The notes below the pieces were generated by a model, which worked only from the letters and a program-made list of their open reading frames with translations, was not told where the DNA came from and did not search any database. This document shows positions 3,445 through 38,933 of a stretch of DNA of 40,593 bases, in pieces. The stretch's first letter is position 1. Each line of letters opens with the position of its first letter. The position numbers and the translations under genes were made by a program. This DNA is from an uncultured Verrucomicrobiota bacterium (GTDB taxonomy: Bacteria > Verrucomicrobiota > Verrucomicrobiia > Chthoniobacterales > SZAS-18), in contig CALMOL010000128.1 of assembly GCA_937871685.1 (NCBI GenBank), positions 1 through 40,593 on the forward strand, in the 5' to 3' direction.

Positions 3445-3516
3445 GCCAGGGTAGCTCAGAGGTAGAGCAGGGGACTCATAAGCCCTTGGTCGGGAGTTCA
3501 ATTCTCCCCCCTGGCA
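3445..3516 (+). tRNA. canonical tRNA with CAT anticodon (Met, or Ile2 if lysidine-modified)
   Basis: Acceptor GCCAGGG/CCCTGGC, D arm GCTC-AGAGGTA-GAGC with GG, anticodon loop CTCATAA, T arm GGGAG-TTCAATT-CTCCC, A73. CCA is not encoded. G1:C72 argues against an initiator. Confidence 0.85.
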
Positions 3517-3840
3517 CTCCCAGAACAGAGGGCCGACGACAGGGTAAAAAGGACAAAGTCTCCATCGGAATCCGCTGCCCGTCGCTGAATCGCGGCGTTG
3601 CCGCAGGTGTCATCAAACATCCACCACAAAAGCCTGAAAGGCTTGGATTCGCCGAGACTGAAGGCGATCTACGTCGCCAATGGCACCATGGCGATCTGAG
3701 TCGGCTGCACGCGACGCGAGGCTCCCGCGAGCCAATTGGATGTCAACATCTGGAATGCCAGACAGCGATAGTGCCGACCGATGATGACACCTGCTGGACG
3801 GTGGGATCCAGGCGAATGACCGGGCGATTGCCGTCGTTTT

Positions 3841-4143
3841 GTGCGAGAGCCATCCATGCGGATCTCCGAGCACATCTTCGAGAACCAAGAAATCGTCCTC
3901 GACTTCGCGGAGTTCAACCACTGCGAGTTCAAGGGCTGCCGGATGAAGCTCTTCGGGCACGGCGACTTCTCGCTGATCAACTGCACGCTCGATGACCGGT
4001 GCCGCATCGAGATCGCGGGGCCGGCGGGCCGCACGCTCGCGATGCTCTCCAAACTCAGGCAAGCAGGCTTTTCCGACTTTGTGGATCGAGTGCTGGAGAG
4101 CGTCCGAAGCGGAAAGATTTCGGACTCGGGGGCCGAACTGTGA
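3841..4143 (+). CDS. hypothetical protein in an AT-richer island
   Basis: 100-aa ORF with protein-like composition (MRISEHIFENQEIVLDFAEFNHCEFKGCRMKLFGHGDFSLINC...). I recognise no family. An alternative start is at 3856. Confidence 0.45.
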   Translation: MREPSMRISEHIFENQEIVLDFAEFNHCEFKGCRMKLFGHGDFSLINCTLDDRCRIEIAGPAGRTLAMLSKLRQAGFSDFVDRVLESVRSGKISDSGAEL

Positions 4144-4391
4144 TGCTCCCCCGGAAGCTTTCGTGTGAGCAGGACTCTGCCTCGTCCGATCATGACACGT
4201 GCCACGGTTCGCGCCGGGAACTGCGTGCGCAACTGGAGATGGAGATTTCCGCGCGGCCACGATCGCGCTCGGTTTATGGAAGATCGCCGGCGCGACCGAT
4301 CACTACGCGGGTTTGCCTTCGCGGGCCTTGATCGAGCCGGCTGGATGTTACATCGCCTCCTTAAACTCATGCGCTAAGAAAATAGTTGCGA

Positions 4392-4437
4392 AGAAATCGA
4401 ATTTCTCTTTGACGGGTTACGTCTGGCCATTTAGCAT
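4392..4437 (+). promoter_or_regulatory. sigma70-like promoter with an upstream dyad
   Basis: TTGACG (4409-4414), a 17-nt spacer, then TAGCAT (4432-4437). It is preceded by the dyad AGAAAT-cga-ATTTCT (4392-4406). Confidence 0.35.
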
Positions 4438-4448
4438 CCGCCACTTCC

Positions 4449-4577
4449 ATGCACGAGATTCTTCAAAGCCTATGCCGCCAGTCGCGCGTCTCCGACGCCG
4501 CGAAGGCGTGGTTTTGCGACCTCGGGAGCGAAATGAATCCCGGTTACACCGTGCCGACGCGCTCCATCTCAGGCTGA
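4449..4577 (+). other. short transcription unit: 42-codon ORF (MHEILQSLCRQSRVSDAAKAWFCDLGSEMNPGYTVPTRSISG) or small RNA
   Basis: The ATG lies about 12 nt after the putative -10 (possibly leaderless). The unit sits between the promoter at 4409-4437 and the terminator at 4610-4640. No homology recognised. Confidence 0.2.
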
Positions 4578-4609
4578 CTCAAGTTCTCGAACTCTTTCCT
4601 TCCGTTGAA

Positions 4610-4640
4610 CCCTGTCAGCCTTCTGGCGACAGGGTTTTTT
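4610..4640 (+). terminator. rho-independent terminator
   Basis: Perfect 7-bp stem CCCTGTC/GACAGGG, an 11-nt loop, then TTTTTT. Confidence 0.7.
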
Positions 4641-4700
4641 GTTGTCCAGCTTTTCCCAGTCTCAACACGATGAAATAACCCAATCCTCCCCACACGGACG

Positions 4701-4739
4701 AAAAAGACCCCCGGAACCAGCGCTAACTGATTCCGGGGG
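4701..4739 (-). terminator. rho-independent terminator (minus strand)
   Basis: 9-bp stem CCCCCGGAA/TTCCGGGGG. On the minus strand it is followed by TCTTTTT. Confidence 0.55.
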
Positions 4740-5073
4740 CGATTCGGACGCAAAATCTAACGGACCTCGCGGGCCTCGCTCGAACTCTTTGTCCACGGCT
4801 AACGTGGCGCTGGAACGGGCAAAGTCAATCGCTCCTTCGGAGCGATATTAGGACCGCTTTGTCTGGGATTTAATTCCCCGCGGGAGGGAACACCCTTTTT
4901 CAATTCCAAAGGCCTTTATAGGAGGTGAGCCTGAATCACCGAAACAGCCGCCGTGAAAAACCTGCGGGCTGGTCCTCGAAAGAGGAGCAGGGGTGTTCAT
5001 TCATTGTTATTTCCGCGTGGGCAGGAGCGAGGCGAAGCCACACCACGGTTGCCCCTCCCCCAGCGCGATGATT

Positions 5074-5147
5074 GCGGTCGTCGTCCAACAGCAAGACGGC
5101 GCGTTGCCAACGCGCAGACCCCGGGGCGGCGCCGGGCGATCGCACCA
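5074..5147 (+). tRNA. tRNA-like, anticodon GCC (Gly)
   Basis: Acceptor GCGGTCG/CGATCGC (one G.T), anticodon arm GCGCG-TTGCCAA-CGCGC, T arm CCCGG-GGCGGCG-CCGGG, A73, CCA encoded. The D-loop has no GG. Confidence 0.6.
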
Positions 5148-5149
5148 AC

Positions 5150-5223
5150 ACGGCGGGCACCAGCTTGTGCGGCGAGGTCTCCAAAACCTTGCCGGCTCGG
5201 AGCAGCACCGAGACGCCGTGCCA
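5150..5223 (+). tRNA. tRNA-like, anticodon CCA (Trp)
   Basis: Acceptor ACGGCG/CGCCGT with A1:T72, anticodon loop CTCCAAA, T arm CTCGG-AGCAGCA-CCGAG, G73, CCA encoded. Confidence 0.55.
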
Positions 5224-5238
5224 GTTTTCTCAAGAAAT

Positions 5239-5314
5239 GGGGGCGCATGTTCCAGAGGGGCGATGCTGCCTTGCAAGCAGCGTGTGGCGGGTGCGAGTCC
5301 CGTCGCCTCCACCA
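5239..5314 (+). tRNA. tRNA-like, anticodon TGC (Ala)
   Basis: Acceptor GGGGGCG/CGCCTCC including G3:T70, anticodon arm GCTGC-CTTGCAA-GCAGC, T arm GCGGG-TGCGAGT-CCCGT, A73, CCA. The D stem is poorly paired. Confidence 0.65.
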
Positions 5315-5323
5315 TTTTTCAAC

Positions 5324-5396
5324 TGCGGGAAGCCCTGGGGGCCAGCCGGTCTCATAAGCCGCGCTGCGCACGGTTCAAATCCGTGTCCCGCAACCA
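5324..5396 (+). tRNA. tRNA-like, anticodon CAT (Met/Ile2)
   Basis: Acceptor TGCGGGA/TCCCGCA, anticodon loop CTCATAA, canonical T arm CACGG-TTCAAAT-CCGTG, A73, CCA. Confidence 0.65.
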
Positions 5397-5413
5397 TTTC
5401 AGCTAATCCCAAA

Positions 5414-5506
5414 GAGGGGTCGTAGGCCCGTAAAGATCGGGCGCTGCCTGTAACGCAGATGCGGCGGACGCCGCCAACGTCGGAGCATTACCGACCGGCC
5501 CTACCA
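5414..5506 (+). tRNA. tRNA-like, anticodon GTA (Tyr), class II
   Basis: Anticodon arm CTGC-CTGTAAC-GCAG, long variable arm GCGGC-GGAC-GCCGC, D stem CCCG/CGGG, T arm GTCGG-AGCATTA-CCGAC, A73, CCA. The 5' acceptor strand is only partly complementary, so the 5' end is uncertain. Confidence 0.5.
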
Positions 5507-5510
5507 TTTT

Positions 5511-5582
5511 AGGTCCGTGGAGGATGAGTTCTCTCACCGCTCTGTCGAAGCGGGGAAGCGGGTGCGAGTCCCGCCGGGCCTG
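5511..5582 (+). tRNA. tRNA-like, anticodon GTC (Asp)
   Basis: Acceptor AGGTCCG/CGGGCCT (one G.T), T8, D stem GAGG/TCTC, anticodon arm CCGCT-CTGTCGA-AGCGG, T arm GCGGG-TGCGAGT-CCCGC, G73. No CCA. Confidence 0.65.
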
Positions 5583-5650
5583 GTCGTCAGGAGGCGCGGA
5601 AGGCCGCGGCCGTGGTCGGGGGGCCACGCCGCGGCCGCGCCATGGCGACA
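5583..5650 (+). other. acceptor-like 7-bp stem enclosing a long GC hairpin (not a cloverleaf)
   Basis: GTCGTCA/TGGCGAC closes a roughly 13-bp hairpin GGCCGCGG(c)CGTGG-tcgggggg-CCACGCCGCGGCC. It is followed by aGTTTTT and may be a terminator or processing element inside the array. Confidence 0.3.
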
Positions 5651-5665
5651 GTTTTTATCTTCAAA

Positions 5666-5738
5666 CGCGCGCGAGGGAGCCAGCGAACCCGCCTGCCTTG
5701 GGAGCAGGAAACGCCCGGCGCCACACCGGGGCGCGCGA
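5666..5738 (+). tRNA. tRNA-like, anticodon TGG (Pro)
   Basis: Perfect acceptor CGCGCGC/GCGCGCG (C1:G72), anticodon arm CCTGC-CTTGGGA-GCAGG (G37), T arm CCCGG-CGCCACA-CCGGG, A73. No CCA. Confidence 0.65.
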
Positions 5739-5760
5739 GATTTCCCAACCGCTTCACCAC

Positions 5761-5843
5761 GCCGGCGTGGCCGAAAGCGAAACCAGACCATGCGCGCCGC
5801 GAAGACCGGCGCGGCCTTGAAGGGGCAATTCCTTCCGCCGGCA
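5761..5843 (+). tRNA. tRNA-like element, anticodon unclear
   Basis: Perfect acceptor GCCGGCG/CGCCGGC, T arm GAAGG-GGCAATT-CCTTC, internal arm GCGCCG-CGAAGAC-CGGCGC (would read AAG with G33). The 5' region is oversized; A73. Confidence 0.35.
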
Positions 5844-5854
5844 GATTCTTCAAC

Positions 5855-5930
5855 GCCCACGAATACAAAGAGACGCGTGACCTGGCCTTCATCCAGGAGC
5901 TAGCCGGTGCGAGTCCGGCCGTGGGCGCCA
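5855..5930 (+). tRNA. tRNA-like, anticodon TTC (Glu)
   Basis: Perfect acceptor GCCCACG/CGTGGGC, anticodon arm CCTGG-CCTTCAT-CCAGG (C at position 33), T arm GCCGG-TGCGAGT-CCGGC, G73, CCA. Confidence 0.6.
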
Positions 5931-5944
5931 TTTTCCTTCCCTGC

Positions 5945-6015
5945 TGCCAGGTGGCGTAACCGCAACGCATCCGGCCCACACCCGGAAGTCCAGGGTGCAA
6001 CTCCCTGCCTGGCAA
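5945..6015 (+). tRNA. tRNA-like, anticodon CAC (Val)
   Basis: Perfect acceptor TGCCAGG/CCTGGCA, D stem GCGT/ACGC, anticodon arm TCCGG-CCCACAC-CCGGA (C33), T arm CAGGG-TGCAACT-CCCTG, A73. No CCA. Confidence 0.6.
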
Positions 6016-6022
6016 GACTTTC

Positions 6023-6093
6023 CGCTTCGTAGCTCAATAGCAGAGCAGCCGGCTGATAACCGGCCGACGGCGGCGCGATACCGCCCGAAGCGA
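6023..6093 (+). tRNA. tRNA-like, anticodon GAT (Ile)
   Basis: Perfect acceptor CGCTTCG/CGAAGCG, TA, D arm GCTC-AATAGCA-GAGC, anticodon arm GCCGG-CTGATAA-CCGGC, T arm GGCGG-CGCGATA-CCGCC, A73. No CCA. Confidence 0.7.
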
Positions 6094-6105
6094 TTTTCCC
6101 CATTC

Positions 6106-6180
6106 CGCTGCGTAGCTTATGCAGAAGAGCGTTGCCCTGAAGAGGCAAAGGAGCCGGTGCGACTCCGGCAGCAGCGGCCA
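6106..6180 (+). tRNA. tRNA-like, anticodon GAA (Phe)
   Basis: Acceptor CGCTGCG/AGCAGCG (6 of 7 pairs), D arm GCTT/GAGC, anticodon arm TTGCC-CTGAAGA-GGCAA, T arm GCCGG-TGCGACT-CCGGC, G73, CCA. Confidence 0.65.
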
Positions 6181-6190
6181 TTTTTTCAAA

Positions 6191-6262
6191 GCGCGACTGA
6201 TGTATCAGCTCGCATGGCGGTCTTCCAAACCGCTCGGCCCGGGGCAGCACCGGGGTCGCGCA
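6191..6262 (+). tRNA. tRNA-like, anticodon TCC (Gly)
   Basis: Perfect acceptor GCGCGAC/GTCGCGC, D stem ATGT/GCAT, anticodon arm GCGGT-CTTCCAA-ACCGC, T arm CCCGG-GGCAGCA-CCGGG, A73. No CCA. Confidence 0.65.
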
Positions 6263-6273
6263 CGTCTTTCCAT

Positions 6274-6346
6274 TCCCGCGTGGCAGATCGAGCTCATGGC
6301 CCCTCCCGTAAAGGGGACCACGCCGGTGCAACTCCGGCCGCGGGAT
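6274..6346 (+). tRNA. tRNA-like, anticodon CGT (Thr)
   Basis: Perfect acceptor TCCCGCG/CGCGGGA, anticodon arm CCCCT-CCCGTAA-AGGGG (C33), T arm GCCGG-TGCAACT-CCGGC, T73. The D arm is poorly defined. Confidence 0.55.
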
Positions 6347-6357
6347 CATCTTTTCAT

Positions 6358-6438
6358 CGGCTCGTGGTTTAGCGGGAACAGCAGACCGTTCCGCCTCAGA
6401 AGCGGAGAGCCTTGGGAGTGCAAGTCTCCCCGAGCCGA
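6358..6438 (+). tRNA. tRNA-like, anticodon CAG (Leu) without a long variable arm
   Basis: Perfect acceptor CGGCTCG/CGAGCCG, anticodon arm TCCGC-CTCAGAA-GCGGA, T arm GGGAG-TGCAAGT-CTCCC, A73. The extra nucleotides sit between the D and anticodon arms rather than in the variable region. Confidence 0.5.
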
Positions 6439-6447
6439 CGATTTCAT

Positions 6448-6524
6448 CACGCGCATGCCAAAGGAGCCGAGGCGGCGGATTGCAAACCCGCTCTTACCCG
6501 GTGCGAGTCCGGGGCGCGTGTCCA
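6448..6524 (+). tRNA. tRNA-like, anticodon GCA (Cys)
   Basis: Perfect acceptor CACGCGC/GCGCGTG, anticodon loop TTGCAAA on a GCGG/CCGC stem, T arm CCCGG-TGCGAGT-CCGGG, T73 (a Cys-type discriminator), CCA. Confidence 0.6.
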
Positions 6525-6532
6525 TTTTCAGC

Positions 6533-6604
6533 GGGGGCGTCGTCCAAGAGCCGGATGCCGCGCCGACATCGCGAAGATCGAGGCGCCAACTCCTCGCTTC
6601 CCCT
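6533..6604 (+). tRNA. tRNA-like, anticodon GAC (Val)
   Basis: Acceptor GGGGGCG/CTTCCCC (6 of 7 pairs including one G.T), D stem GTCC/GGAT, anticodon arm CGCG-CCGACAT-CGCG (C33), T arm CGAGG-CGCCAACT-CCTCG (8-nt loop). Confidence 0.45.
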
Positions 6605-6614
6605 CCTCTTTCAT

Positions 6615-6689
6615 TGACCAGTAGCTCAACAGTAGAGCCGCCGGCTGTTAACCGGAAGGCTGATGGTGCGAATCCATCCTGGTCAGCCA
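6615..6689 (+). tRNA. tRNA-like, anticodon GTT (Asn)
   Basis: Perfect acceptor TGACCAG/CTGGTCA, TA, D arm GCTC-AACAGTA-GAGC, anticodon loop CTGTTAA on CCGG/CCGG, T arm GATGG-TGCGAAT-CCATC, G73, CCA. Confidence 0.7.
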
Positions 6690-6697
6690 TTTCCCAT

Positions 6698-6781
6698 TCC
6701 GTCGAGGCGTCCGCAGCGACGCGGCCTGTGGGATGCGGGGCGAACCCCGTCGCAAGCCCGGGCAACGGATCGGAGTTTATA
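6698..6781 (+). other. GC-rich multi-hairpin spacer (no cloverleaf found)
   Basis: Contains hairpins GCGTC-cgcagc-GACGC and CGGGG-cgaa-CCCCG plus the palindrome GCCCGGGC. I found no 7-bp acceptor pairing or anticodon loop. Confidence 0.25.
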
Positions 6782-7007
6782 CCAACATGCAATCGAAGCT
6801 ACAAGATGGCGCATTCCGGCCGTTGTAGAGGCGGCTCTGTCCGCGAATGCGGACGTGCCGCCTGAAGCTTTCTCCCGGGTGGATGCTGCGGGATGCCCAA
6901 CTGGCGTCCACCCAAGAAGGGATCAGAGGCGGCACGTCCGCATTCGCGGACAGAGCCGCCTCTACAACCGGGGACTCGCCGATCTCGCAACTCTGATCGC
7001 GTGTTGG
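6782..7007. repeat. 226-bp nested imperfect palindrome (MITE/REP-doublet-like) inside the tRNA-like array
   Basis: Core arms 6822-6865 and 6923-6968 are reverse complements except for a 2-nt indel. Each arm is itself a hairpin (GGCGGC..GTCCGC-gaat-GCGGAC..GCCGCC). The inner stem is GGGTGGA/TCCACCC, and the outer pairing CCAACATGC/GCGTGTTGG carries mismatches. Confidence 0.7.
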
Positions 7008-7013
7008 TTTCAC

Positions 7014-7087
7014 GCGCGAGTAGCTCAGCGGAAGAGAGCGCCAGCGTTCTAATCTGGATGTCGCAGGCTCGAATTCTGCCTTGCGCG
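7014..7087 (+). tRNA. tRNA-like, anticodon TCT (Arg)
   Basis: Acceptor GCGCGAG/CTTGCGC (one G.T), TA, D arm GCTC-AGCGGAAGA-GAGC (GG present), anticodon loop GTTCTAA, T arm GCAGG-CTCGAAT-TCTGC, G73. This is the most canonical unit of the array. Confidence 0.7.
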
Positions 7088-7127
7088 TCACCGCCGAGAC
7101 CGAGCCGCGGCCCACGCACATTTTTTC

Positions 7128-7202
7128 GGGTCCATCGTCCAACACGTAGGACAGCCGGCTTTTACCCGGTCGATCTCGGTGCGAATCCGAGTGGGCCCAC
7201 CA
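7128..7202 (+). tRNA. tRNA-like, anticodon TTT (Lys)
   Basis: Acceptor GGGTCCA/TGGGCCC (one G.T), D stem GTCC/GGAC, anticodon arm GCCGG-CTTTTAC-CCGGT, T arm CTCGG-TGCGAAT-CCGAG, A73, CCA. Confidence 0.7.
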
Positions 7203-7210
7203 CTTTCCCT

Positions 7211-7302
7211 GGATGCCGTAGCGGACAAGCGCGCCGCCGCCGGTTGGAAGCCGGCTGAGACTGCCCCCATGGCGGTCTGCGGTGCAAGTCCGCCGGCATC
7301 CG
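7211..7302 (+). tRNA. tRNA-like, anticodon GGA (Ser), class II
   Basis: Perfect acceptor GGATGCC/GGCATCC, anticodon arm GCCGG-TTGGAAG-CCGGC, 7-bp long variable arm GACTGCC-cccat-GGCGGTC, T-loop TGCAAGT, G73. Confidence 0.6.
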
Positions 7303-7310
7303 GATTTTTT

Positions 7311-7388
7311 GGGCGCGAGGTGTCAACAGCTTCGCACACACGGCTCTTACCCGTTGAGGCTGGGGTGCAATTCCCCACGCGCCCACCA
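7311..7388 (+). tRNA. tRNA-like, anticodon probably CTT (Lys)
   Basis: Perfect acceptor GGGCGCG/CGCGCCC, D stem GTGT/ACAC with a 12-nt loop, anticodon loop CTCTTAC on a short stem, T arm TGGGG-TGCAATT-CCCCA, A73, CCA. Confidence 0.45.
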
Positions 7389-7392
7389 CCTT

Positions 7393-7484
7393 GGAGAGTC
7401 AACCGGACAAGCGTGCCGGAACCGCCTCGAAAACGGTTTGGACCTGGGAACAGGTCTGCGGGGCGGGACCGCGACTCTCCGCCA
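7393..7484 (+). tRNA. tRNA-like, anticodon CGA (Ser), class II
   Basis: Perfect acceptor GGAGAGT/ACTCTCC, D stem CCGG/CCGG, anticodon loop CTCGAAA, long variable arm GACCTG-ggaa-CAGGTC, T arm TGCGG-GGCGGGA-CCGCG, G73, CCA. Confidence 0.65.
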
Positions 7485-7491
7485 TTTCAAC

Positions 7492-7563
7492 GCCGACGTG
7501 GAGGATAATCTCGCCGCCCTTGTAGCGCGGAGGATGCGGGTGAAAGCCCCGCCGCCGGCTCCA
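7492..7563 (+). tRNA. tRNA-like, anticodon TGT (Thr)
   Basis: Acceptor GCCGACG/CGCCGGC (6 of 7 pairs), T8, anticodon loop CTTGTAG on CCGC/GCGG, T arm GCGGG-TGAAAGC-CCCGC, T73, CCA. Confidence 0.55.
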
Positions 7564-7574
7564 ATTTTTCAAAA

Positions 7575-7647
7575 GCTCGGGTAGCCCAACCGCAGAGGCA
7601 AGGCGTCGAGAACGCCGCCAGTGAGGGTGCAACTCCCTTCCCGAGCA
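7575..7647 (+). tRNA. tRNA-like, anticodon GAG (Leu) without a long variable arm
   Basis: Perfect acceptor GCTCGGG/CCCGAGC, TA, anticodon arm GGCG-TCGAGAA-CGCC (C33), T arm GAGGG-TGCAACT-CCCTT, A73. Class I length (73 nt). Confidence 0.5.
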
Positions 7648-7660
7648 CTTCTTTTTCAAA

Positions 7661-7732
7661 GTTCCCGAAGCGCAATAGACGCGCGCCGCCCTGCGAAGGC
7701 GGAGGGTGCTGGTGCAACTCCAGCCGGGAACA
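7661..7732 (+). tRNA. tRNA-like, anticodon GCG (Arg)
   Basis: Perfect acceptor GTTCCCG/CGGGAAC, D arm GCGC-AATAGAC-GCGC, anticodon arm CCGCC-CTGCGAA-GGCGG, T arm GCTGG-TGCAACT-CCAGC, A73. Confidence 0.65.
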
Positions 7733-7743
7733 CGCTTTCCCAC

Positions 7744-7814
7744 AGCCCCATGGGGTAACGCAGCACGGCGGTCTTTGAAGCCGTTCGGTGATCGTTCGAG
7801 TCGATCTGGGGCTG
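7744..7814 (+). tRNA. tRNA-like, anticodon TTG (Gln)
   Basis: Perfect acceptor AGCCCCA/TGGGGCT (weak A1:T72), anticodon arm GCGGT-CTTTGAA-GCCGT (two G.T pairs), canonical T arm GATCG-TTCGAGT-CGATC, G73. Confidence 0.55.
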
Positions 7815-7824
7815 CTTTTCTCTC

Positions 7825-7885
7825 GGATCGTAAACCGGACAAGCAAGCCGGCGCGCGGTGCTAACGCGACGGACGACGGCCATCC
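7825..7885 (+). pseudogene. truncated tRNA-like unit, anticodon GCT (Ser)
   Basis: The 5' half parallels the Ser(CGA) unit (GGATCGT aa a CCGG-acaagcaag-CCGG, loop GTGCTAA). There is no variable or T arm before the acceptor-like GGCCATCC. Confidence 0.3.
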
Positions 7886-7969
7886 ATGCCGTGGTTGAGG
7901 GGCAGGCCCTCTGCGATCCGCATTTTCCCGATGGATGGACACCCGCCGCGCGGCGCCACCACTCTGCCC

Positions 7970-8551
7970 ATGAACCACCTCGACCAAATCACCGTCCTCG
8001 TGCTCAACCGCTCGTGGCAGGCGATCCACGCCAAGACGCCGGCGCAGGCCTTCGTCATGATGGCGTCAGACGCGGCCACCGCGCTCGACATCGAGAACGA
8101 CCGCATGACTCCGGTGCGTTGGGCCGACTGGCTCAAGCTGCCGGTGCGCGAGACCGACGCCCGCGTGCAAACCGCGCGCGGCCCGGTGCGCATTCCCACC
8201 GTGCTCGTGCTCGCCCGCTACGCCAAGGTGCCGCGCCGACGCCCGCGCTTCTCGCTGCGGGCGGTGTGGGAGCGCGACGGCGGCCGCTGCCAATACACCG
8301 GCCGCACGCTGGCGCTGGGCGAGGGCAACATCGACCACGTCCTCCCGCGCTCGCGCGGCGGCCGCACGAGCTGGGACAACTGCGTGCTCGCCGACCGCGC
8401 GGTGAACTCGCGCAAGGGCGACAAGCTCCCCGAAGAGGCGGGCCTCAAGCTCGCGCGCCGGCCGACCATGCCGCCCGCGCTGCCGGCGACGGTCGCGCTG
8501 CGGAACCCAAGGAACATTCCCGAGTGGGATCTCTTCCTGCGGCGCGGTTGA
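7970..8551 (+). CDS. HNH endonuclease
   Basis: HNH core GRCQYTGRTL...GNIDHVLPRSRGGRTSWDNCVLADRAVNSRKGDK. The start is taken at MNHLDQITVLVLNRSW (ATG 7970) rather than the ORF-track ATG 7886, which overlaps the last tRNA-like unit. Confidence 0.8.
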   Translation: MNHLDQITVLVLNRSWQAIHAKTPAQAFVMMASDAATALDIENDRMTPVRWADWLKLPVRETDARVQTARGPVRIPTVLVLARYAKVPRRRPRFSLRAVWERDGGRCQYTGRTLALGEGNIDHVLPRSRGGRTSWDNCVLADRAVNSRKGDKLPEEAGLKLARRPTMPPALPATVALRNPRNIPEWDLFLRRG

Positions 8552-8660
8552 GTGCGCCGTGACAACGCTGGATTGCGCACTGCGGCGAGTCTCTTCATTC
8601 TCGCCGCAGCGCCATCTCATCTCGCTCCCGGGCAAGCGTCAGAGGCCGCCAAGGAATTGC

Positions 8661-8684
8661 GCCCGCCTTCGGCCGGGATTTTTT
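8661..8684 (+). terminator. rho-independent terminator after the HNH gene
   Basis: GC hairpin CCCGCC-ttc-GGCCGGG followed by aTTTTTT. An additional perfect 10-bp hairpin CTGCGGCGAG/CTCGCCGCAG lies at 8580-8609. Confidence 0.5.
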
Positions 8685-8785
8685 CTGAGGGGAATTCTGT
8701 CGATCAACCACTCATGGATGAGTGATCTGGTCGCGAGGCTCGAATCCCGATTCTTTCGAGCCGAGCGAGCGACGTCACAGAAATC

Positions 8786-9481
8786 GTGTCCAACCTGCCA
8801 ATGCTTCAGGATTCGCTCTGCCTTTTGTCGAGCAACGATGTCGTCGGCTTGGCAGCGGGAATCCCGGAAGACCGTCATTCATCGGAACAGCCGGCCGACC
8901 AAGCCAGCCGATGGGACGAGATCGACGAGGTCTTTCACCAACTGCTCCCGCGGATGCAGCGCAACGATTTGGCGGCCTGGGACGAGTTCTTCCAGGTCGC
9001 ATGGCCGTTGGTGTTTCGGACGATTTTCCGGCTCTCCGGCAAGTTCACCCACGAGGATGCCGAGGAGATTTCGCAGGACACGCTGGCGACCGTTCACGCG
9101 TCGCTCGATACGTTCCGCGGCGAGAGCAAGTTTCGGGTTTGGATGCTTGGGATCGCTTGGCGAAAGGCCCAGGGCAGAATCGCTCACCAGAATGCCAGGA
9201 AGCGACGAGGCGAGCAGGTCGAACTCGATTCCGAGATCGTGGATGAGGCCGCTTGCCGCCCTTCCGATGCCATCGCGCAAAAGGAGGATTCGGAGAGGAT
9301 CCGATCGGCCCTTGGACGGCTCCAGGATCATTGCCGCGAGGTGATCGAGCTCCGCTACTTTGCCGAGCTTCCATACGACGAGCTGGCCGACCTCTTCGGC
9401 GAAAACGTGAAGACGATTGGCTCCCGGCTTTCCCGCTGCCTCGCCGCCTTGGGAAAGCTCTTCCACGCCTCAAGACGATGA
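8786..9481 (+). CDS. ECF-type RNA polymerase sigma-70 factor
   Basis: Region 2-like DEFFQVAWPLVFRTIFRL...EDAEEISQDTL and region 4-like CREVIELRYFAELPYDELADLFGENVKTIGSRLSRC. The N-terminal start is uncertain. Confidence 0.8.
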   Translation: MSNLPMLQDSLCLLSSNDVVGLAAGIPEDRHSSEQPADQASRWDEIDEVFHQLLPRMQRNDLAAWDEFFQVAWPLVFRTIFRLSGKFTHEDAEEISQDTLATVHASLDTFRGESKFRVWMLGIAWRKAQGRIAHQNARKRRGEQVELDSEIVDEAACRPSDAIAQKEDSERIRSALGRLQDHCREVIELRYFAELPYDELADLFGENVKTIGSRLSRCLAALGKLFHASRR

Positions 9482-10158
9482 GACCACATGACGATTTCCA
9501 AAGCGATGAGCCTCCGCGGCGAGCTATCCCGCGCCGTGGCTTGGAATGGAATGGTCGGGCAGCGAAGAATCCGGCAGGACATCGCGGCCAACTGCCAGCT
9601 CCCGTGGACGGCGGCGCAGCGTCTGCCCGGCCAGATTGGGAAGGGAGCGCGATGTCCGCGCTCGAGCGGGAGAGGCGCCGGCGGGACGATGATCTGTCGC
9701 CGGAATCGCTGACCATTCCGCCGGTGATTCGAAACCGCTTGCTGCGGCAAGCGTGGGCGGGAAGCGAGGCCGTGGAACGAAGCTTGGCGCCTCGTCGAAC
9801 GTCACCTGCCAGATGGCTCGTCCCGGCGGCCGCGGGCCTGCTTGTGTCGCTCGCGTTTCTGTCCCTGAGGGACAGCACGGATCCGCGTGCTTTCGCGGCC
9901 AAGACGAATGACTCGACCTTGTCGGTCCAAGACTGGGCGTGGGAGGCAAGCTCGCCAGATCCGTTTTCAGGCAACTTGGCTTTTGAGGAAAGCCTCCTCG
10001 CCCGCCTCGGAATCCTCGCGCGAAAGGATGCGGAAGTCTCATTCACGAAGCTCGTTGTGATCGACCGGATGGTCTTGGAGCCGCGGGTGCTCCTTTCCAA
10101 CCGCTTCCGCATGGCCATTGGATTGGATCTGACCGCGATCGAGGCGGATGGGAGCTGA
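9478..10158 (+). CDS. putative anti-sigma factor (single-pass membrane protein)
   Basis: The ATG overlaps the sigma stop (ATGA coupling). One hydrophobic segment, WLVPAAAGLLVSLAFLSL. No recognisable domain; an alternative start is at 9652. Confidence 0.45.
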   Translation: MRPHDDFQSDEPPRRAIPRRGLEWNGRAAKNPAGHRGQLPAPVDGGAASARPDWEGSAMSALERERRRRDDDLSPESLTIPPVIRNRLLRQAWAGSEAVERSLAPRRTSPARWLVPAAAGLLVSLAFLSLRDSTDPRAFAAKTNDSTLSVQDWAWEASSPDPFSGNLAFEESLLARLGILARKDAEVSFTKLVVIDRMVLEPRVLLSNRFRMAIGLDLTAIEADGS

Positions 10159-10265
10159 TCGCGCGGTAAGCGTGAAAAACCTGCACGCGCCGATGAACGC
10201 GCGGATGGGCGTCACGCCAATCGGCGAACGTTTTCGGATTTCCCGCCCCGCCGGATCGAGTCGCG

Positions 10266-10385
10266 TTTTGGAGGGCGGTGGCAAGCGACAGCGCTTTTGA
10301 CTACAAAGCCGCGCCCTCATGCCAAAGCGGTGTCGCGCTGTCGCTTGCCACCGCACTCCAAAACGTCGGCGACCTTCCGCAAGCC
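10266..10385. repeat. dispersed palindromic repeat, GGAG(T/G)GCGGTGGCAAGC family, copy 1
   Basis: Arms ggagggcggtggcaagcgacagcgc and gcggtgtcgcgctgtcgcttgccaccgcactcc, with tail aaaacgtcggcgaccttccgcaagc. Confidence 0.65.
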
Positions 10386-10442
10386 GATCGTAAGGAGAGC
10401 GAGGCTTGGGCAACTTTCGTGATCCTCGACAAGGAGGATGCG

Positions 10443-22962: not shown

Positions 22963-24309
22963 ATGCCCCCCGTCCTCGCCCTTGAATCCGTCGCCCGCCG
23001 GGTGGTGGAGCGGCTCCGCGCCGGGGGACACACGGCCTACTACGCTGGCGGCTGCGTGCGGGACGCTCTCCTGGGCGGTGAGCCCAAGGATTATGACATC
23101 GCCACGGATGCCCACCCAGAGCAGGTGCAGGCGCTGTTTCCGCGCCACGAGGCGGTGGGCGCGCACTTCGGCGTGATCCTCGTAAAGGAGGCGGGGCAGC
23201 AATTGGAAGTCGCCACTTTCCGCGCGGATGGCACCTACCTCGACGGCCGGCGCCCGGAGAGCGTCCATTTCACCACGGCCGAGGAGGACGCCGCCCGGCG
23301 CGACTTCACCGTGAACGGAATGTTCCTCGACCCGCTGGCGGATGAGGGTCGGGGGCGCGTGCTCGACTTCGTCGGGGGCCGGGCGGATCTCGACGCGAAG
23401 GTCATCCGCGCCATCGGCGACCCGGCGGCGCGCTTCGCGGAGGACCGCCTGCGTCTGCTGCGCGCGGTGCGCTTCGCGGCGCGGCTGGGCTTCGAGATCG
23501 AGCCAGCCACGCTGTCCGCCATCCAGGCGGTGGCGCCAGAGATCCGCGTGGTATCGCCCGAGCGCATCCGCGAAGAATTGGTGCGCATCTTCACCGCGCC
23601 CACGCGCGTCGCCGGATGGGACTGGCTCGACCGCTCCGGCCTCATGCGCGAGGTCCTGCCCGAATTGGAAACGCTCAAGGGCGTGGAGCAGCCGCCGCAG
23701 TTTCACCCCGAGGGCGACGTCTTCGTCCACACGCGCCTCGTCCTCTCGCACCTGCCGCCGGAGAAAGTGAGCGTGCCGCTGGCCTTCGGCGCGCTGCTCC
23801 ACGACATCGGCAAGCCCGGCACGATGACGGTGCATCCCGAGGAGGACGGCCGCATCCGCTTCTCCGGTCACGAGCACGTCGGCGCGATCATGGCCGAGCG
23901 CGTGATGCGGCGGCTGCGCTTCTCCAACGAGGAGATCGAGCGCACCGTGGAGGCCGTGCGGATGCACATGGCCTTCAAGGACGTGCCGCGCATGCGCACC
24001 GCGAAGCTCAAGCGCTTCATGGCGCGGCCTGGCTTCGGGGACGAGCTCGCGCTGCACCGCGCCGATTGCCTCGGCTCGCACGCGATGCTCGACAACCACG
24101 CCTTCCTGCTCGCCAAGGAGGAGGAATTCGCCAACGCGCCGCTGATCCCCACGCCCCTCGTGAACGGCGGCGACCTCATCGCGCTCGGCTGGAAGCCGGG
24201 GCCCAAGTTCAAGGAGGTGCTGGAAGCCGCGCTGAACCGGCAGCTCGAAGGCGGCTTTGCTGGCCGCGAGGACGCCCTGGCTTGGCTGCGGGGGCAAAGT
24301 GAGAAGTGA
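22963..24309 (+). CDS. cca: CCA-adding enzyme / poly(A) polymerase family tRNA nucleotidyltransferase with HD domain
   Basis: GGCVRDALLGGEPKDYDIAT, RDFTVNGM, and the HD region LLHDIGKP. Confidence 0.85.
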   Translation: MPPVLALESVARRVVERLRAGGHTAYYAGGCVRDALLGGEPKDYDIATDAHPEQVQALFPRHEAVGAHFGVILVKEAGQQLEVATFRADGTYLDGRRPESVHFTTAEEDAARRDFTVNGMFLDPLADEGRGRVLDFVGGRADLDAKVIRAIGDPAARFAEDRLRLLRAVRFAARLGFEIEPATLSAIQAVAPEIRVVSPERIREELVRIFTAPTRVAGWDWLDRSGLMREVLPELETLKGVEQPPQFHPEGDVFVHTRLVLSHLPPEKVSVPLAFGALLHDIGKPGTMTVHPEEDGRIRFSGHEHVGAIMAERVMRRLRFSNEEIERTVEAVRMHMAFKDVPRMRTAKLKRFMARPGFGDELALHRADCLGSHAMLDNHAFLLAKEEEFANAPLIPTPLVNGGDLIALGWKPGPKFKEVLEAALNRQLEGGFAGREDALAWLRGQSEK

Positions 24310-36654: not shown

Positions 36655-37227
36655 ATGAGCAAGCGCGCGGAACTACTGCCGGCGATGCCCCTGCACCGCT
36701 TCACGGTGAAGGACTACCTGCGCATGGGTGAGACGGGCATCCTGGACGAGGACGACCGCGTCGAACTCATTGACGGCCAGATCATCGCCATGTCCCCCAT
36801 CGGTTTCCGACACGCCAAGATGGTGAATCGCCTCACTCGTATCCTCGTGCGCTTGGCCGGCGACGAGGCGGAGGTTTCGCCGCAGAATCCGGTCGAACTC
36901 GACCGCTATGGGATGCCGCAGCCGGACTTGGCGCTCATCTCGGCGGAATGCACCGCGCACGCGCGCCCAAAAGACACGCACTTGGTAATCGAGGTATCCG
37001 ATTCCACGCTGAACTTCGACCTCAAGGTCAAGGCACAGCACTACGCCCGCACCGGCATCCGAGAATATTGGGTCGTGGACGTGGACAACGAGGTGCTTTG
37101 GATTCACCGCAGCCCGCGCCGCAATGGCACCTACGCGAGCGTCGTGGCGCTCGAAGCGAATGAGACGGTGATCTGCGAATCACTCCCCGCGGTGCGTATC
37201 ACGCGGGCCGACTTGGGGTGGAAGTAA
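36655..37227 (+). CDS. Uma2-family (DUF820) endonuclease
   Basis: FTVKDYLRMGETGIL..RVELIDGQI..MSP...PDLALI...LVIEVSDST...DLKVKAQHYARTGIREYWVVD. Confidence 0.8.
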   Translation: MSKRAELLPAMPLHRFTVKDYLRMGETGILDEDDRVELIDGQIIAMSPIGFRHAKMVNRLTRILVRLAGDEAEVSPQNPVELDRYGMPQPDLALISAECTAHARPKDTHLVIEVSDSTLNFDLKVKAQHYARTGIREYWVVDVDNEVLWIHRSPRRNGTYASVVALEANETVICESLPAVRITRADLGWK

Positions 37228-38890: not shown

Positions 38891-38933
38891 GATTTCAAAG
38901 GCTACCGCGCCCCCCGGCGCGGGCAAACGCCGC

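Follow-up and report, generated by a model that had tools for sequence, protein, structure and literature searches.

A tRNA array of 28 units occupies positions 5074-7920 (+ strand) of the window, a 40,593-nt stretch of contig CALMOL010000128.1 from an uncultured bacterium of the phylum Verrucomicrobiota. It is assigned, with high confidence, to the HNH-linked L-arrays (also called tRNA array units) as a chromosomal member, within a lineage spread over Verrucomicrobiota. Taken as a whole, the locus is probably best explained as an HNH-linked accessory L-array acting as a reserve tRNA set. The order of the module is terminator, leader RNA, array, optional Ro/RlaP/RtcB RNA-repair genes and HNH gene, also with high confidence. 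A Verrucomicrobiota-wide module of this layout looks new.

Detection and extent of the array

Covariance model R1, trained on 92 class I tRNAs from related arrays (a few window units among them), gives 27 tRNA-like matches on the + strand at 5074-7814 (E<0.01, 14-80 bits). Across the rest of the 40 kb a single match is comparable, that of the housekeeping tRNA-Met at 3445 (51 bits); non-tRNA sequence elsewhere in the window reaches 13.8 bits at most. R1 misses two class II Ser units that also fold as cloverleaves, giving 28 units in total. Nineteen amino acids are covered; no His unit is present. The array is under-called by standard tools. ARAGORN by default reports 11 tRNAs only, within 5510-7815, and Rfam RF00005 at the gathering score reports 10 in the array. 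With ARAGORN thresholds of 90% and 80%, 19 and about 23 + strand tRNAs are recovered, and their anticodons are those listed in the first-pass annotation. The dense head-to-tail array and the 19-amino-acid inventory without His that were proposed there are thus confirmed. The final Ser(GCT) unit, described there as truncated, is full length (7825-7920), and the array ends at 7920, not at 7885. The segment had also been called AT-richer: the direction is correct, the size of the difference small (GC content 64.2% for the array and 68.0% for the remainder of the window), and the compositional signal weak.

Array units and their variant elbow

All units lie on the + strand. The 5' part consists of tRNA-Gly(GCC) (5074..5147; T-loop GGCGGCG, D-loop without GG, CCA encoded; R1 58.4 bits, ARAGORN ps90), tRNA-Trp(CCA) (5150..5223; T-loop AGCAGCA, CCA encoded; R1 16.7 bits, MFE cloverleaf with z -2.4), tRNA-Ala(TGC) (5239..5314; T-loop TGCGAGT, CCA encoded; R1 34.1 bits), a CAT-anticodon tRNA, Met or Ile2 (5324..5396; canonical elbow TTCAAAT, D-loop GG, CCA encoded; R1 25.4 bits, ARAGORN ps90), class II tRNA-Tyr(GTA) (5416..5506; T-loop AGCATTA with A54...T58, CCA encoded; ARAGORN ps85, R1 24.5 bits), tRNA-Asp(GTC) (5511..5582; T-loop TGCGAGT; ARAGORN default, R1 57.5 bits) and tRNA-Pro(TGG) (5666..5738; T-loop CGCCACA; R1 33.1 bits, ARAGORN ps90). 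A degenerate unit follows at 5761..5843 (R1 33.2 bits; fold z -1.2), with acceptor stem and T-arm intact and the anticodon loop degenerate. Its anticodon is not assignable, in agreement with its earlier listing as unclear; by position and T-arm it aligns with Arg(TCG) of the related arrays L001 and L002.

The middle part consists of tRNA-Glu(TTC) (5855..5930; C33, T-loop TGCGAGT, CCA encoded; R1 45.4 bits), tRNA-Val(CAC) (5945..6015; C33, T-loop TGCAACT; ARAGORN default, RF00005 53.5 bits, R1 66.6 bits), tRNA-Ile(GAT) (6023..6093; T-loop CGCGATA; RF00005 57.3 bits, R1 80.5 bits), tRNA-Phe(GAA) (6106..6180; T-loop TGCGACT, CCA encoded; RF00005 47 bits, R1 66.6 bits), tRNA-Gly(TCC) (6191..6262; T-loop GGCAGCA; R1 51.3 bits, unit outside the training set), tRNA-Thr(CGT) (6274..6346; C33, T-loop TGCAACT; R1 51.4 bits, ARAGORN ps90), tRNA-Leu(CAG) (6358..6438; short variable arm, large D-region, A73; R1 33.4 bits, ARAGORN ps90), tRNA-Cys(GCA) (6448..6524; CCA encoded; R1 44.8 bits, ARAGORN ps90), tRNA-Val(GAC) (6533..6604; C33, 8-nt T-loop; R1 38.1 bits, ARAGORN ps80) and tRNA-Asn(GTT) (6615..6689; D-loop AACAGTA, T-loop TGCGAAT, CCA encoded; RF00005 60.4 bits, R1 75.8 bits). 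The degenerate unit at 6698..6770 (R1 17.8 bits) is doubtful, possibly a decayed tRNA. Its fold is no better than that of shuffles (z -0.2), and alignment does not place it with relatives' His units. The array is then interrupted by an insertion missing from related arrays, an imperfect 228-bp palindrome (6781..7008) with perfect 42-nt arms at 6822-6863 and 6927-6968.

The 3' part consists of tRNA-Arg(TCT) (7014..7087; near-canonical elbow CTCGAAT, D-loop GG; RF00005 49.6 bits, ARAGORN), tRNA-Lys(TTT) (7128..7202; T-loop TGCGAAT, CCA encoded; RF00005 56.2 bits, R1 67 bits), class II tRNA-Ser(GGA) (7211..7300; T-loop TGCAAGT; ARAGORN default, R1 14.1 bits), tRNA-Lys(CTT) (7311..7388; T-loop TGCAATT, CCA encoded; R1 52.4 bits, unit outside the training set), class II tRNA-Ser(CGA) (7393..7484; T-loop GGCGGGA, G73, CCA encoded; fold z -4.2, spacer context), tRNA-Thr(TGT) (7492..7563; T-loop TGAAAGC, CCA encoded; RF00005 34.7 bits, R1 35.8 bits), tRNA-Leu(GAG) (7575..7647; class I length, C33, A73; RF00005 38.1 bits, R1 59.2 bits), tRNA-Arg(GCG) (7661..7732; T-loop TGCAACT; RF00005 58.1 bits, R1 72.5 bits), tRNA-Gln(TTG) (7744..7814; T-loop TTCGAGT with T55; RF00005 43.7 bits, R1 46.6 bits) and an aberrant class II tRNA-Ser(GCT) (7825..7920; 5-nt T-loop; z -2.9). 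The fold of tRNA-Ser(CGA) shows acceptor stem, D-arm and long arm, and its 5' half repeats the 5' halves of the other Ser units (repeat family D5). tRNA-Ser(GCT) forms a 97-nt MFE cloverleaf followed by the usual CATTTTCC spacer, in a region conserved with L001.

Identity features named at first pass are present: G3:T70 in Ala; T73 in Cys; G73 in Asp, Glu, Asn, Gln, Trp and Ser; C1:G72, A73 and G37 in Pro; long variable arms in Tyr and Ser. Likewise, CCA is encoded in about half of the units (14/28) and not in the nearby tRNA-Met at 3445, and a TTTYC run lies 3' of nearly every unit. Spacers are regular in form: discriminator-(CCA or decayed CNN)-TTTYC-N2-4. A point absent from that annotation is that the Leu units are without the long variable arm that is expected in tRNA-Leu of bacteria. 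Within anticodon families compared between genomes, stem pairing is 92-99% (ARAGORN-detected units, somewhat biased towards well-paired stems), and 6-15 of the 17 stem columns per family show compensatory changes. Discriminator bases are largely amino-acid specific across related arrays, and the consensus of the array tRNA alignment is a cloverleaf with 19/20 pairs covarying. Judged from these comparisons, the array units are real tRNAs kept by structural selection, as their stems stay paired through compensatory changes and their discriminators are amino-acid specific; the earlier preference for real tRNAs over random hairpins is upheld. Several strongly deviating units may be inactive. Examples of such deviations are T-loops of 5 or 8 nt, a C at position 33, the A56 of Thr(TGT) and, at 5761-5843, the degenerate anticodon loop.

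U55 and G18 are near-universal among tRNAs, and few tRNA positions are as conserved. In related arrays, G55 is found in 323/369 array tRNAs (88%). The D-loop GG is absent from 299 of these 323, and the dinucleotide is AG in 261. T55 array units carry GG in 43/44 cases (Fisher's exact test p = 1.6e-37), as do 17/18 non-array flanking tRNAs with T55. Elbow positions 18 and 55 covary strictly across array tRNAs (A18 with G55). In the window the elbow is altered in 24/28 units, whose D-loops read A18-G19 and whose T-loops read N54-G55-C56-R57-N58; this replaces the inner G18:U55 contact and leaves the outer G19:C56 pair in place. The adjoining tRNA-Met (3445) has a canonical elbow. The A18/G55 elbow of array tRNAs looks new. 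Hypothetically, it would allow reserve tRNAs to be told apart from housekeeping tRNAs. Array tRNAs might resist T-loop- or elbow-directed tRNases, of the kind of CdiA-CT E479, whose cleavage site inside the T-loop is the conserved T and pseudouridine (PMC9086364); as the other option, they might escape U54/U55/G18 modification and surveillance enzymes.

Borders of the module and related loci

Homology with related loci starts at ~4609. On its 5' side the conserved module is bounded by an intrinsic-terminator-like hairpin followed by a T-run (4610..4645, + strand; ACCCTGTCAGCC...GGCGACAGGGTTTTTTGTT), conserved in L001, L002 and L016. Between this and the leader lies a 15-bp hairpin (4707..4740, + strand), conserved in alignment and consensus fold; in a simple scan it is terminator-like on the minus strand. 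The structured leader RNA (4917..5008, + strand, ~92 nt; 85.9 bits with model R2) immediately precedes the first array tRNA and has three hairpins (P1 GGTGA/TCACC, P2 CCGC/GCGG, P3 variable), an invariant GGTGT and a T-rich tail. It is present in 25/25 loci having a visible array 5' border. In its alignment 98% of cells are paired, both-side changes occur in 10/17 pairs, and 0/500 shuffles attain these values. No Rfam family matches at E<=10, and the leader appears to be new. With three covarying hairpins and a T-rich tail, the leader would fit either an attenuator-like switch or a processed small RNA; for a terminator/antiterminator alternative the covariation is mixed (1 compensatory change, 1 wobble, 3 disruptions).

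The module ends 3' with a gene (7970..8551, + strand) for an HNH endonuclease of 193 aa (Pfam PF13395); its N-terminal ~95 aa form a conserved beta-rich domain, and its HNH_4 domain is Cas9-like. Its AlphaFold2 model has a pLDDT of 88.8; PDB structures match the HNH core only. Homologues number >5300, the top matches being 63-78% identical. By tblastn its full length aligns at ~31% identity with the HNH genes that adjoin the plasmid arrays of Nostoc and Acidiphilium, where 21 and 37 tRNAs, respectively, surround the gene. It also matches HNH genes on plasmids of Tolypothrix, Acaryochloris and Mycolicibacterium and in tRNA-rich phages.

A contig scan found at least 577 HNH relatives, the best 80 all from Verrucomicrobiota. 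The window array is collinear with those of L001, L002 and L016. Presence and absence in relatives, a comparison suggested at first pass, was scored at 52 HNH loci having enough upstream sequence: arrays are found at 28 and not at 17. Related arrays have 3 to 28 units each. Ro/TROVE, RlaP or RtcB lies between array and HNH in 19/28, which fits the earlier back-up or decoy idea. The window module is a reduced version, with RtcB, Ro and RlaP absent; its link to RNA repair is therefore by module homology and not by local gene content.

Accessory status, proposed function and known relatives

The set looks accessory, and the window and related loci point to supernumerary tRNAs, because a canonical tRNA-Met adjoins an array carrying its own CAT unit, His and many anticodons are missing, array size varies from 3 to 28 units among relatives, and array-less HNH loci occur. 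The first-pass reading as an accessory or mobile module is thus retained in its first part. Mobility is not supported here: mobility genes and an att repeat were looked for in the window and none was found, and the flanking genes are housekeeping.

By analogy and gene linkage, the array most likely serves as a reserve of tRNAs that is induced by stress and tied to RNA damage. The terminator at 4610-4645 would insulate the module. A promoter upstream of the leader would drive transcription of the array as a single precursor, and read-through would be controlled by the leader or a factor bound to it. The regular spacers would be the cleavage sites of this precursor, with RNase P acting at 5' ends and RNase E or Z in the U-rich trailers. 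The host CCA-adding enzyme, for which a candidate lies in the window (22963-24309), would complete the units that lack CCA. Mature array tRNAs would be charged and serve as a reserve pool upon housekeeping tRNA damage or stalled translation; such a role is shown for the Anabaena trn operon, and it matches phage replacement tRNAs.

The role of tRNA arrays had been called poorly understood in the first-pass annotation. The class is already described: L-arrays are long accessory tRNA arrays with linked HNH, known from cyanobacteria, with HNH and rtcB linkage and stress induction of the Anabaena array, of which 23/26 tRNAs are aminoacylated in vivo (PMC8421152). The Anabaena trn operon is repressed by TrcR (PMC10272220), and damaged tRNA is a substrate of RlaP and RtcB action (PMC12776372). 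The HNH and rtcB linkage described there is the same as in the Verrucomicrobiota module, of which the window carries the version without RtcB. Its proposed reserve role is like that of phage tRNAs, which substitute for tRNAs cleaved by defence nucleases.

Extent and units of the tRNA array

Dense array of 28 tRNA units at 5074-7920, every unit on the + strand. Density is about 9.8 units per kb (28 units in 2847 bp); spacers are mostly of 5-22 nt. Nineteen amino acids are represented, and His, which the first-pass annotation had not found either, is absent. A tRNA array unit is formally defined by at least 20 tRNA genes and a density of at least 2 per kb (Tran et al., PMC4758250); the window array has both.

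Detection depends strongly on the model used. The first-pass annotation had proposed a check with ARAGORN and Rfam RF00005, and at standard settings these return 11 and 10 array units, respectively, and more when relaxed. ARAGORN by default places its 11 tRNAs in 5510-7815 and adds a canonical tRNA-Met at 3445-3517; thresholds of 90% and 80% give 19 and about 23 units on the + strand and reproduce the anticodons read earlier. RF00005 finds its 10 units in a whole-window scan at the gathering score (29 bits), with Thr(TGT) as an eleventh match (34.7 bits) in a permissive scan of the sub-region; 17 other units are below the gathering threshold. A covariance model of class I array tRNAs (R1) was trained on 92 class I tRNAs of related arrays, a few window units among them. 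With filters off, R1 yields 27 + strand matches within 5074-7814 (E<0.01, 14-80 bits), including units outside both the training set and the standard calls: Gly(TCC) at 51 bits, Lys(CTT) at 52, Glu(TTC) at 45, Val(GAC) at 38 and Trp at 17. On both strands of the other ~37 kb a comparable score is reached only by the tRNA-Met at 3445, and the best non-tRNA match is of 13.8 bits, which confirms the dense same-strand array. Standard tRNA finders miss more than half of its genes; such arrays are therefore under-annotated in metagenome-assembled genomes.

Cloverleaf with 7/4/5/5-bp stems and a 7-nt anticodon loop, two degenerate units excepted. In the alignment of the 92 relatives 19 of 20 pairs of the consensus cloverleaf covary, and the window alignment to R1 is concordant. 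Compared across genomes, the stems of each anticodon family are 92-99% paired and compensatory double changes are present in 6-15 of 17 stem columns; this pairing is supportive rather than unbiased, because ARAGORN detection favours paired stems. Discriminators are largely amino-acid-specific (A73 in Leu, Ile and Lys; G73 in Asn, Gln, Glu and Asp). Structural alignment bears out the identity features recorded in the first-pass annotation: G3:T70 in Ala, T73 in Cys, C1:G72 with A73 and G37 in Pro, G73 in Asp, Glu, Asn, Gln, Trp and Ser, and long variable arms in Tyr and Ser units. Units follow one another by the pattern discriminator, CCA or decayed CNN, TTTYC, N2-4, next unit. CCA is encoded in 14 of 28 units, in agreement with the earlier estimate of about half, and the regular TTTYC spacer corresponds to the TTTTC-type run noted after the units. 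Tandem periodicity is not detected within the array, similarity being confined to T-arms and to the 5' halves of the Ser units. Genes of a single orientation, spaced tightly enough for co-transcription and without periodicity, are a mark of L-arrays (PMC8421152) that the window array shares.

Three units require separate description. tRNA-Ser(GCT), 7825-7920 (+), had been taken as truncated; its free-energy fold is instead a full-length class II cloverleaf of 97 nt, in which the T-loop has 5 nt, and the usual CATTTTCC spacer comes after it. The unit at 5761-5843 (+), formerly unclear, matches Arg(TCG) of related arrays by position and T-arm, but its anticodon loop is degenerate. The unit at 6698-6770 is weak and doubtful, with a fold no better than shuffles; a decayed His identity is rejected, since alignment with the His units of relatives fails. 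The latter two are probably dead, and units with 5-nt or 8-nt T-loops possibly so.

An imperfect palindrome of 228 bp (6781-7008; perfect 42-nt arms at 6822-6863 and 6927-6968) separates the Asn unit from Arg(TCT) as an insertion that related arrays lack. It could represent a MITE-like element or form a long hairpin.

Searched as a whole by BLAST against plasmids and phages, the array gives only matches of single-tRNA size. An 83% match of the Asn unit to tRNA-Asn of L5-like mycobacteriophages is judged generic, because the phage tRNA has the canonical GG/TTC elbow.

Variant elbow, short tRNA-Leu and C33

Position 55 of cytoplasmic elongator tRNAs is nearly always U (pseudouridine), paired with G18. 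The window array, in contrast, bears the G55/A18 type across most of the set: 24 of 28 units combine G55 with a D-loop without GG, T55 is present only in the CAT, Arg(TCT) and Gln(TTG) units, and the G18-G19 and T54-U55-C56 combination of canonical elongators is thus not that of this array. The adjoining housekeeping tRNA-Met is canonical, and T55 tRNAs outside the arrays of related loci have GG in 17 of 18 cases.

The same elbow, that is, the D-loop/T-loop contact of positions 18/55 and 19/56, was surveyed in 369 array tRNAs from Verrucomicrobial loci. G55 is present in 323 (88%), 299 of which are without GG in the D-loop, while 43 of 44 T55 units have it (Fisher's exact test, p = 1.6e-37). 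Positions 18-19 are AG in 261 G55 units. By these counts the outer G19:C56 contact is retained and the inner G18:U55 contact is replaced coordinately. The 54:58 pair is mostly T:A, with swaps to A:T (about 40 units), C:A (about 25) and G:G (about 10). Covariation of 18 with 55 is so strict that the elbow appears to be under selection and not drifting, and it would scarcely be expected if the folded L-shape were not selected for. The generic T-loop RNA motif, known from RNase P, rRNA, T-box RNAs and riboswitches, is U-[G/U]-N-R-A. The UGCRA loops of the array conform to it, G being allowed at the second position of the motif, and a normal L-shape is therefore plausible.

Outside the Verrucomicrobial arrays the G55/no-GG elbow is found in 0 of 37 tRNAs of an Acidiphilium plasmid array and in 2 of 21 of a Nostoc plasmid array. 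It is sporadic in low-GC phage arrays beside HNH homologues and dominates two mid-GC IMG/VR contigs. In the literature searched, neither a whole tRNA set with G55/A18 nor a description of the elbow variant, of the leader RNA or of Verrucomicrobial arrays in detail was found.

Leu units are of class I length in 86 of 86 cases in related loci (69-76 nt as parsed by ARAGORN) and in the window (6358-6438, 81 nt; 7575-7647, 73 nt). A73 is kept; the long variable arm of typical bacterial tRNA-Leu is absent. Of 386 array tRNAs, 46 (12%) have C33 where U33 is near-universal; they are concentrated in Leu(GAG) (19/20), Ile(GAT) (11/17) and Val units. Window units with C33 are Glu 5855, Val 5945, Thr 6274, Val 6533 and Leu(GAG) 7575.

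Leader RNA, HNH endonuclease and related loci

Structured leader RNA of about 92 nt, 4917-5008 (+), with three hairpins and covariation. Occurs in relatives at 5952-6043 (L001), 7827-7920 (L002) and 4378-4472 (L003), and in 21 other loci; directly 5' of the first tRNA in 25 of 25 loci with a visible 5' array border. In the leader alignment 98% of cells are paired, both-side changes are present in 10 of 17 pairs, and none of 500 shuffles attains such values. The 3' part has an invariant GGTGT and a T-rich tail. The leader is more conserved than the array tRNAs and is confined to this array type, its IMG/VR occurrence being four contigs only. Rfam 15 covariance models with permissive filters gave no match overlapping 4917-5008 at E<=10. 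The leader could be a riboswitch- or attenuator-like element, or a processed small RNA. A general element of RtcB operons was considered and rejected, since the leader occurs only 5' of arrays and in the four IMG/VR contigs. Pairing of ACACCG with CGGTGT as a terminator/antiterminator switch has mixed support: changes that compensate P1 in the window and in related locus L055 disrupt it, and a single compensatory change, in L001, accords with it. Terminator/antiterminator switching by the leader is conjectural.

Upstream of the leader are a conserved terminator-like hairpin with a T-run (4610-4645) and a second conserved hairpin of 15 bp (4707-4740), which mark the 5' edge of the region common to L001, L002 and a third related locus, L016. 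A spacer-like TTTTCAA motif and a conserved AAGGGCTTC are situated just upstream of the leader.

HNH endonuclease of 193 aa (PF13395), 7970-8551, directly after the array. Homologues number more than 5300; the top 120 are 63-78% identical, and identity is about 65% across the phylum. The HNH core is Cas9-like. The N-terminal domain (about 95 aa; motif VLVLNRxWQAI...TPxxAF) equals the nuclease core in conservation; a fold search against the PDB gave matches confined to the HNH core and none for this domain. PADLOC gave only domain-level HNH matches (Cas9, PtuB, type II REase), which do not indicate a defence system; the weak similarity to PtuB, the nuclease of tRNA-cleaving Septu/retron systems, is to the HNH motif only. 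By tblastn the protein is similar over its full length (30-33% identity, E 1e-13 to 1e-15) to annotated HNH genes of Nostoc and Tolypothrix plasmids, and by this comparison it is taken as a homologue of the linked HNH of cyanobacterial L-arrays (all8564-type), the known long accessory tRNA operons. Relatives at about 31% occur on plasmids of Nostoc, Tolypothrix, Acaryochloris, Mycolicibacterium and Acidiphilium and in tRNA-rich phages; the homologous gene is directly before the 21 tRNAs of the Nostoc plasmid (L008) and amid the 37 tRNAs of the Acidiphilium plasmid (L007).

Flanking genes are chromosomal: dynamin-like GTPase, Fpg and Skp/OmpH, and further a histidine kinase, argininosuccinate lyase (ASL), LigA, a candidate CCA-adding enzyme, PGI and ExoVII (XseA), among others. 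GC content of the window is about 68%, with 57.5% in 4001-5000. Pfam and PHROGs searches of neighbouring ORFs gave no integrase or phage gene, the HNH being the sole match of this kind. Integration at tRNA-Met was rejected, as the 3' end of this tRNA is repeated nowhere in the window (no att repeat); integrase, structural genes and att repeats of a prophage or integrative element are thus all lacking. RtcB, Ro (TROVE) and RlaP are absent from the window. ORFs in 3518-4608 and 8559-10400 have no Pfam, PHROGs or PADLOC matches and are not conserved in the syntenic L002. A PIN7-domain protein adjoins an SPFH/Band-7 protein (28082-28891, 29041-29850), and two Uma2-family putative endonucleases are encoded at 36655-37227 and 38411-38926; an array link is apparent for neither pair.

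On the contigs first examined, close HNH homologues are all downstream of a same-strand tRNA array, in some loci with RtcB or RlaP between array and HNH. A scan of one genome per species gave at least 577 HNH relatives. The best 80 of these are all Verrucomicrobiota and span Chthoniobacterales, Verrucomicrobiales, Akkermansiaceae, Opitutaceae and Methylacidiphilum; cultured carriers of HNH relatives include Chthoniobacter flavus and Prosthecobacter fluviatilis. In P. fluviatilis KACC 12649 (L062), 13 or more array tRNAs are accompanied by TROVE, RlaP and HNH genes, and complete chromosomes that bear an array are OY970277.1, OY969777.1 and OZ260079.1. Of 52 loci whose upstream sequence extends for at least 6 kb, 28 have arrays, 7 only a few tRNAs and 17 none. 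Related arrays have 3-28 units. The array abuts HNH in 9 of the 28, the window included; TROVE/Ro, RlaP or RtcB genes are between array and HNH in the other 19. The window array is collinear with those of L001, L002 and L016. Its left flank (Fpg, tRNA-Met) is shared with L002, a Chthoniobacterales MAG, and the module flanks of L001 differ from both. The module looks largely vertically conserved within Verrucomicrobiota.

Some genomes hold two copies of the HNH locus, differing in array or repair-gene content: L011 and L030 on one 2.0-Mb contig, L066 and L082 in Verrucomicrobium sp. BvORR106. On many putative phage contigs of IMG/VR (L092-L138) HNH homologues of 45-61% identity lie beside tRNA clusters. 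L137 and L138 (GC about 0.52) have mostly G55-type tRNAs; L092-L136 (low GC, up to ~230 kb) have mostly canonical tRNAs and a few of the G55 type (His, Cys, Trp, Val, Gly). The complete Verrucomicrobial module, leader included, is present on three IMG/VR contigs.

Proposed function and relation to known systems

With the anatomy of array and module, the phylum-wide conservation, the linkage of repair genes in relatives and the elbow covariation established, a mode of action can be outlined. Transcription would be polycistronic and would start upstream of the leader, which presumably controls array expression; RNase P and RNase E/Z would process the precursor at the U-rich spacers, and the host CCA-adding enzyme would complete the CCA ends. 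The array tRNAs would most likely serve as a reserve pool in RNA damage or translational stress, by analogy with the Anabaena array (PMC8421152), with phage tRNAs, which replace cleaved host tRNAs (PMC11555353, PMC13096335), and with RtcB and RlaP, which have a role on damaged tRNA (PMC12776372). A tRNase that cuts in the T-loop, at the conserved T and pseudouridine, is known (CdiA-CT E479, PMC9086364), and the altered elbow might, hypothetically, make the reserve set resistant or invisible to T-loop- or elbow-directed enzymes.

A further-reaching reading is more tentative, possible rather than probable. Verrucomicrobiota would keep a distinct second tRNA set, marked by the A18:G55 elbow with 54:58 swaps, by Leu without the long arm and by C33 in some isoacceptors, controlled by the leader as a riboswitch- or attenuator-like RNA not described before, and placed in an operon with Ro, RlaP, RtcB and conserved HNH genes; its elbow would evade a T-loop- or elbow-directed tRNase or surveillance and so let translation restart during repair of the housekeeping tRNAs.

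It is unlikely that the units are not translation substrates at all and act as tRNA-like decoys or sponges for tRNA-targeting toxins, or as cofactors or substrates of Ro, RlaP and RtcB in the manner of Y RNAs. Linkage to these three genes in most related arrays is in favour, as are the altered elbow, C33, aberrant T-loops and class I Leu, which suggest relaxed translational constraints, and a sponge role has been raised for Anabaena (PMC8421152). A pure decoy, however, has no need of G3:U70 in Ala, class-specific discriminators, long arms in Ser and Tyr and CCA ends, all of which are kept, nor do anticodons for 19 amino acids fit it; the Anabaena relatives are aminoacylated in vivo, and the window and 8 other arrays are without Ro, RtcB and RlaP.

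Quite improbable is a selfish cassette, in which a homing HNH spread a phage-derived tRNA cluster that now decays into pseudogenes of no function for the host. In cultured phages and on numerous large phage contigs of IMG/VR, HNH homologues do adjoin tRNA clusters, and SegB is a precedent (PMC13096335); the differing flanks of L001, the 10-11 of 28 units that pass standard tRNA thresholds, the decay of CCA in half of the units, the two degenerate units and the palindromic insertion also agree with it. Yet stems are kept paired by compensatory evolution across genomes, 18/55 covariation is strict, and the leader is conserved beyond the tRNAs. The HNH is about 65% identical phylum-wide and is kept without arrays at 17 of 52 loci, which argues against a purely selfish, short-lived homing endonuclease; the window is without phage or integrase genes.

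Just as small a likelihood is given to a prophage or mobile-element remnant of anti-defence nature, whose nuclease-resistant tRNAs serve the virus or element and not a host stress response. Phage tRNAs bypass tRNA-cleaving defences (PMC11555353, PMC13096335, PARIS preprint), and a putative anti-defence role is under discussion for mycobacterial arrays (PMC12803027). L137 and L138 contain G55-type units, which low-GC phage arrays show sporadically, and three IMG/VR contigs hold the complete module with leader; the high-GC contigs of IMG/VR may be misclassified chromosomal fragments. Against a remnant are also the core housekeeping flanks (Fpg, Skp, ASL, LigA, PGI, XseA), the left flank common to a second genome, and the window's lack of an integrase, of an att repeat and of any phage family match save HNH.

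That the array is the organism's primary tRNA operon is very improbable: although 19 of 20 amino acids are served in one place, His is missing, many anticodons that a 68% GC genome needs are absent (Ala-GGC, Pro-GGG/CGG, Arg-CCG/ACG, Glu-CTC, Gln-CTG and Ser-TGA among them), a canonical tRNA-Met is 1.5 kb upstream, related arrays have as few as 3 units or, at 17 of 52 loci, none, and the non-array tRNAs flanking related loci are canonical.

The joining of array and Ro, RlaP and RtcB in one gene string of many relatives supports the idea of tRNA replacement alongside repair after damage. The conserved leader, as a candidate regulatory RNA, could reveal the signal that switches arrays on. The elbow swap affects nucleotides among the most conserved of tRNA and is available in hundreds of sequences; this natural covariation therefore bears on what RNase P, synthetases, EF-Tu and the ribosome need of the elbow, and also on the contributions of TruB, TrmA and TrmH. 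Long accessory tRNA arrays are widespread, and experimental study has so far been of the Anabaena member only.

L-arrays were described as long, supernumerary, horizontally spread tRNA operons in seven phyla, Verrucomicrobia among them, with a conserved HNH and frequently rtcB as neighbours (Santamaria-Gomez et al. 2021, PMC8421152). The Anabaena array is induced by translational stress, with 23 of 26 tRNAs aminoacylated in vivo (PMC8421152). On this basis the window array as such is a member of this known kind. The first-pass interpretation was largely right, but the class of array had already been described; what gives the locus its value is the covarying elbow, the leader RNA and the coupling of array and RNA-repair operon, and not that an array exists.

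Cyanobacterial L-arrays are likewise long, dense and same-strand, are supernumerary as the window array probably is, cover most amino acids, encode many CCA ends, have short Leu and are linked to a homologous HNH (~31%, full length), with rtcB often a neighbour; the Nostoc plasmid array has short Leu units and, in its 2 variant units of 21, the TGCAA/no-GG elbow. They differ in being plasmid-borne, whereas the window array is chromosomal among housekeeping genes; in having HNH upstream, not downstream as in Verrucomicrobia; in the variant elbow, sporadic there and present in 88% of Verrucomicrobial units; and in that Verrucomicrobial relatives hold Ro, RlaP and RtcB inside the same gene string. 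The trn operon of Anabaena sp. PCC 7120 is repressed by the DNA-binding TrcR (PMC10272220), which binds DNA direct repeats, in place of which a structured leader RNA is found here.

Arrays of Acidithiobacillus ICEs, Mycobacterium plasmids and phages and the Acidiphilium plasmid (PMC4758250, PMC5966550, PMC12803027) have an HNH homologue within or beside the array, but canonical TTCRA T-loops, GG D-loops, class II Leu and mobile replicons. Phage tRNA clusters (T4 SegB, T5-like; PMC13096335, PMC11555353) adjoin a small nuclease gene, and escape from tRNA-cleaving systems by variant tRNAs is an established idea for them; known escape variants, however, alter the anticodon or variable loop, not the elbow, and the window has no phage context. 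Large IMG/VR contigs have HNH relatives of 50-60% identity adjoining tRNA clusters. The nuclease SegB belongs to the GIY-YIG and not to the HNH enzymes.

RNA-repair operons of the Rsr(Ro)-Y RNA-RtcB/RtcA type were reportedly described by Hughes et al. in 2020 (cited in PMC12776372). The window copy itself is not such an operon, and Rfam detected neither a Y-RNA family nor RtcR in the loci examined. Such operons with RlaP (PMC12776372) are matched by the TROVE/Ro, RlaP and RtcB string of 19 of 28 arrays, and both systems encode non-coding, tRNA-like RNAs beside repair enzymes; those RNAs are Y RNAs there, and full tRNA sets with anticodons and identity elements here.
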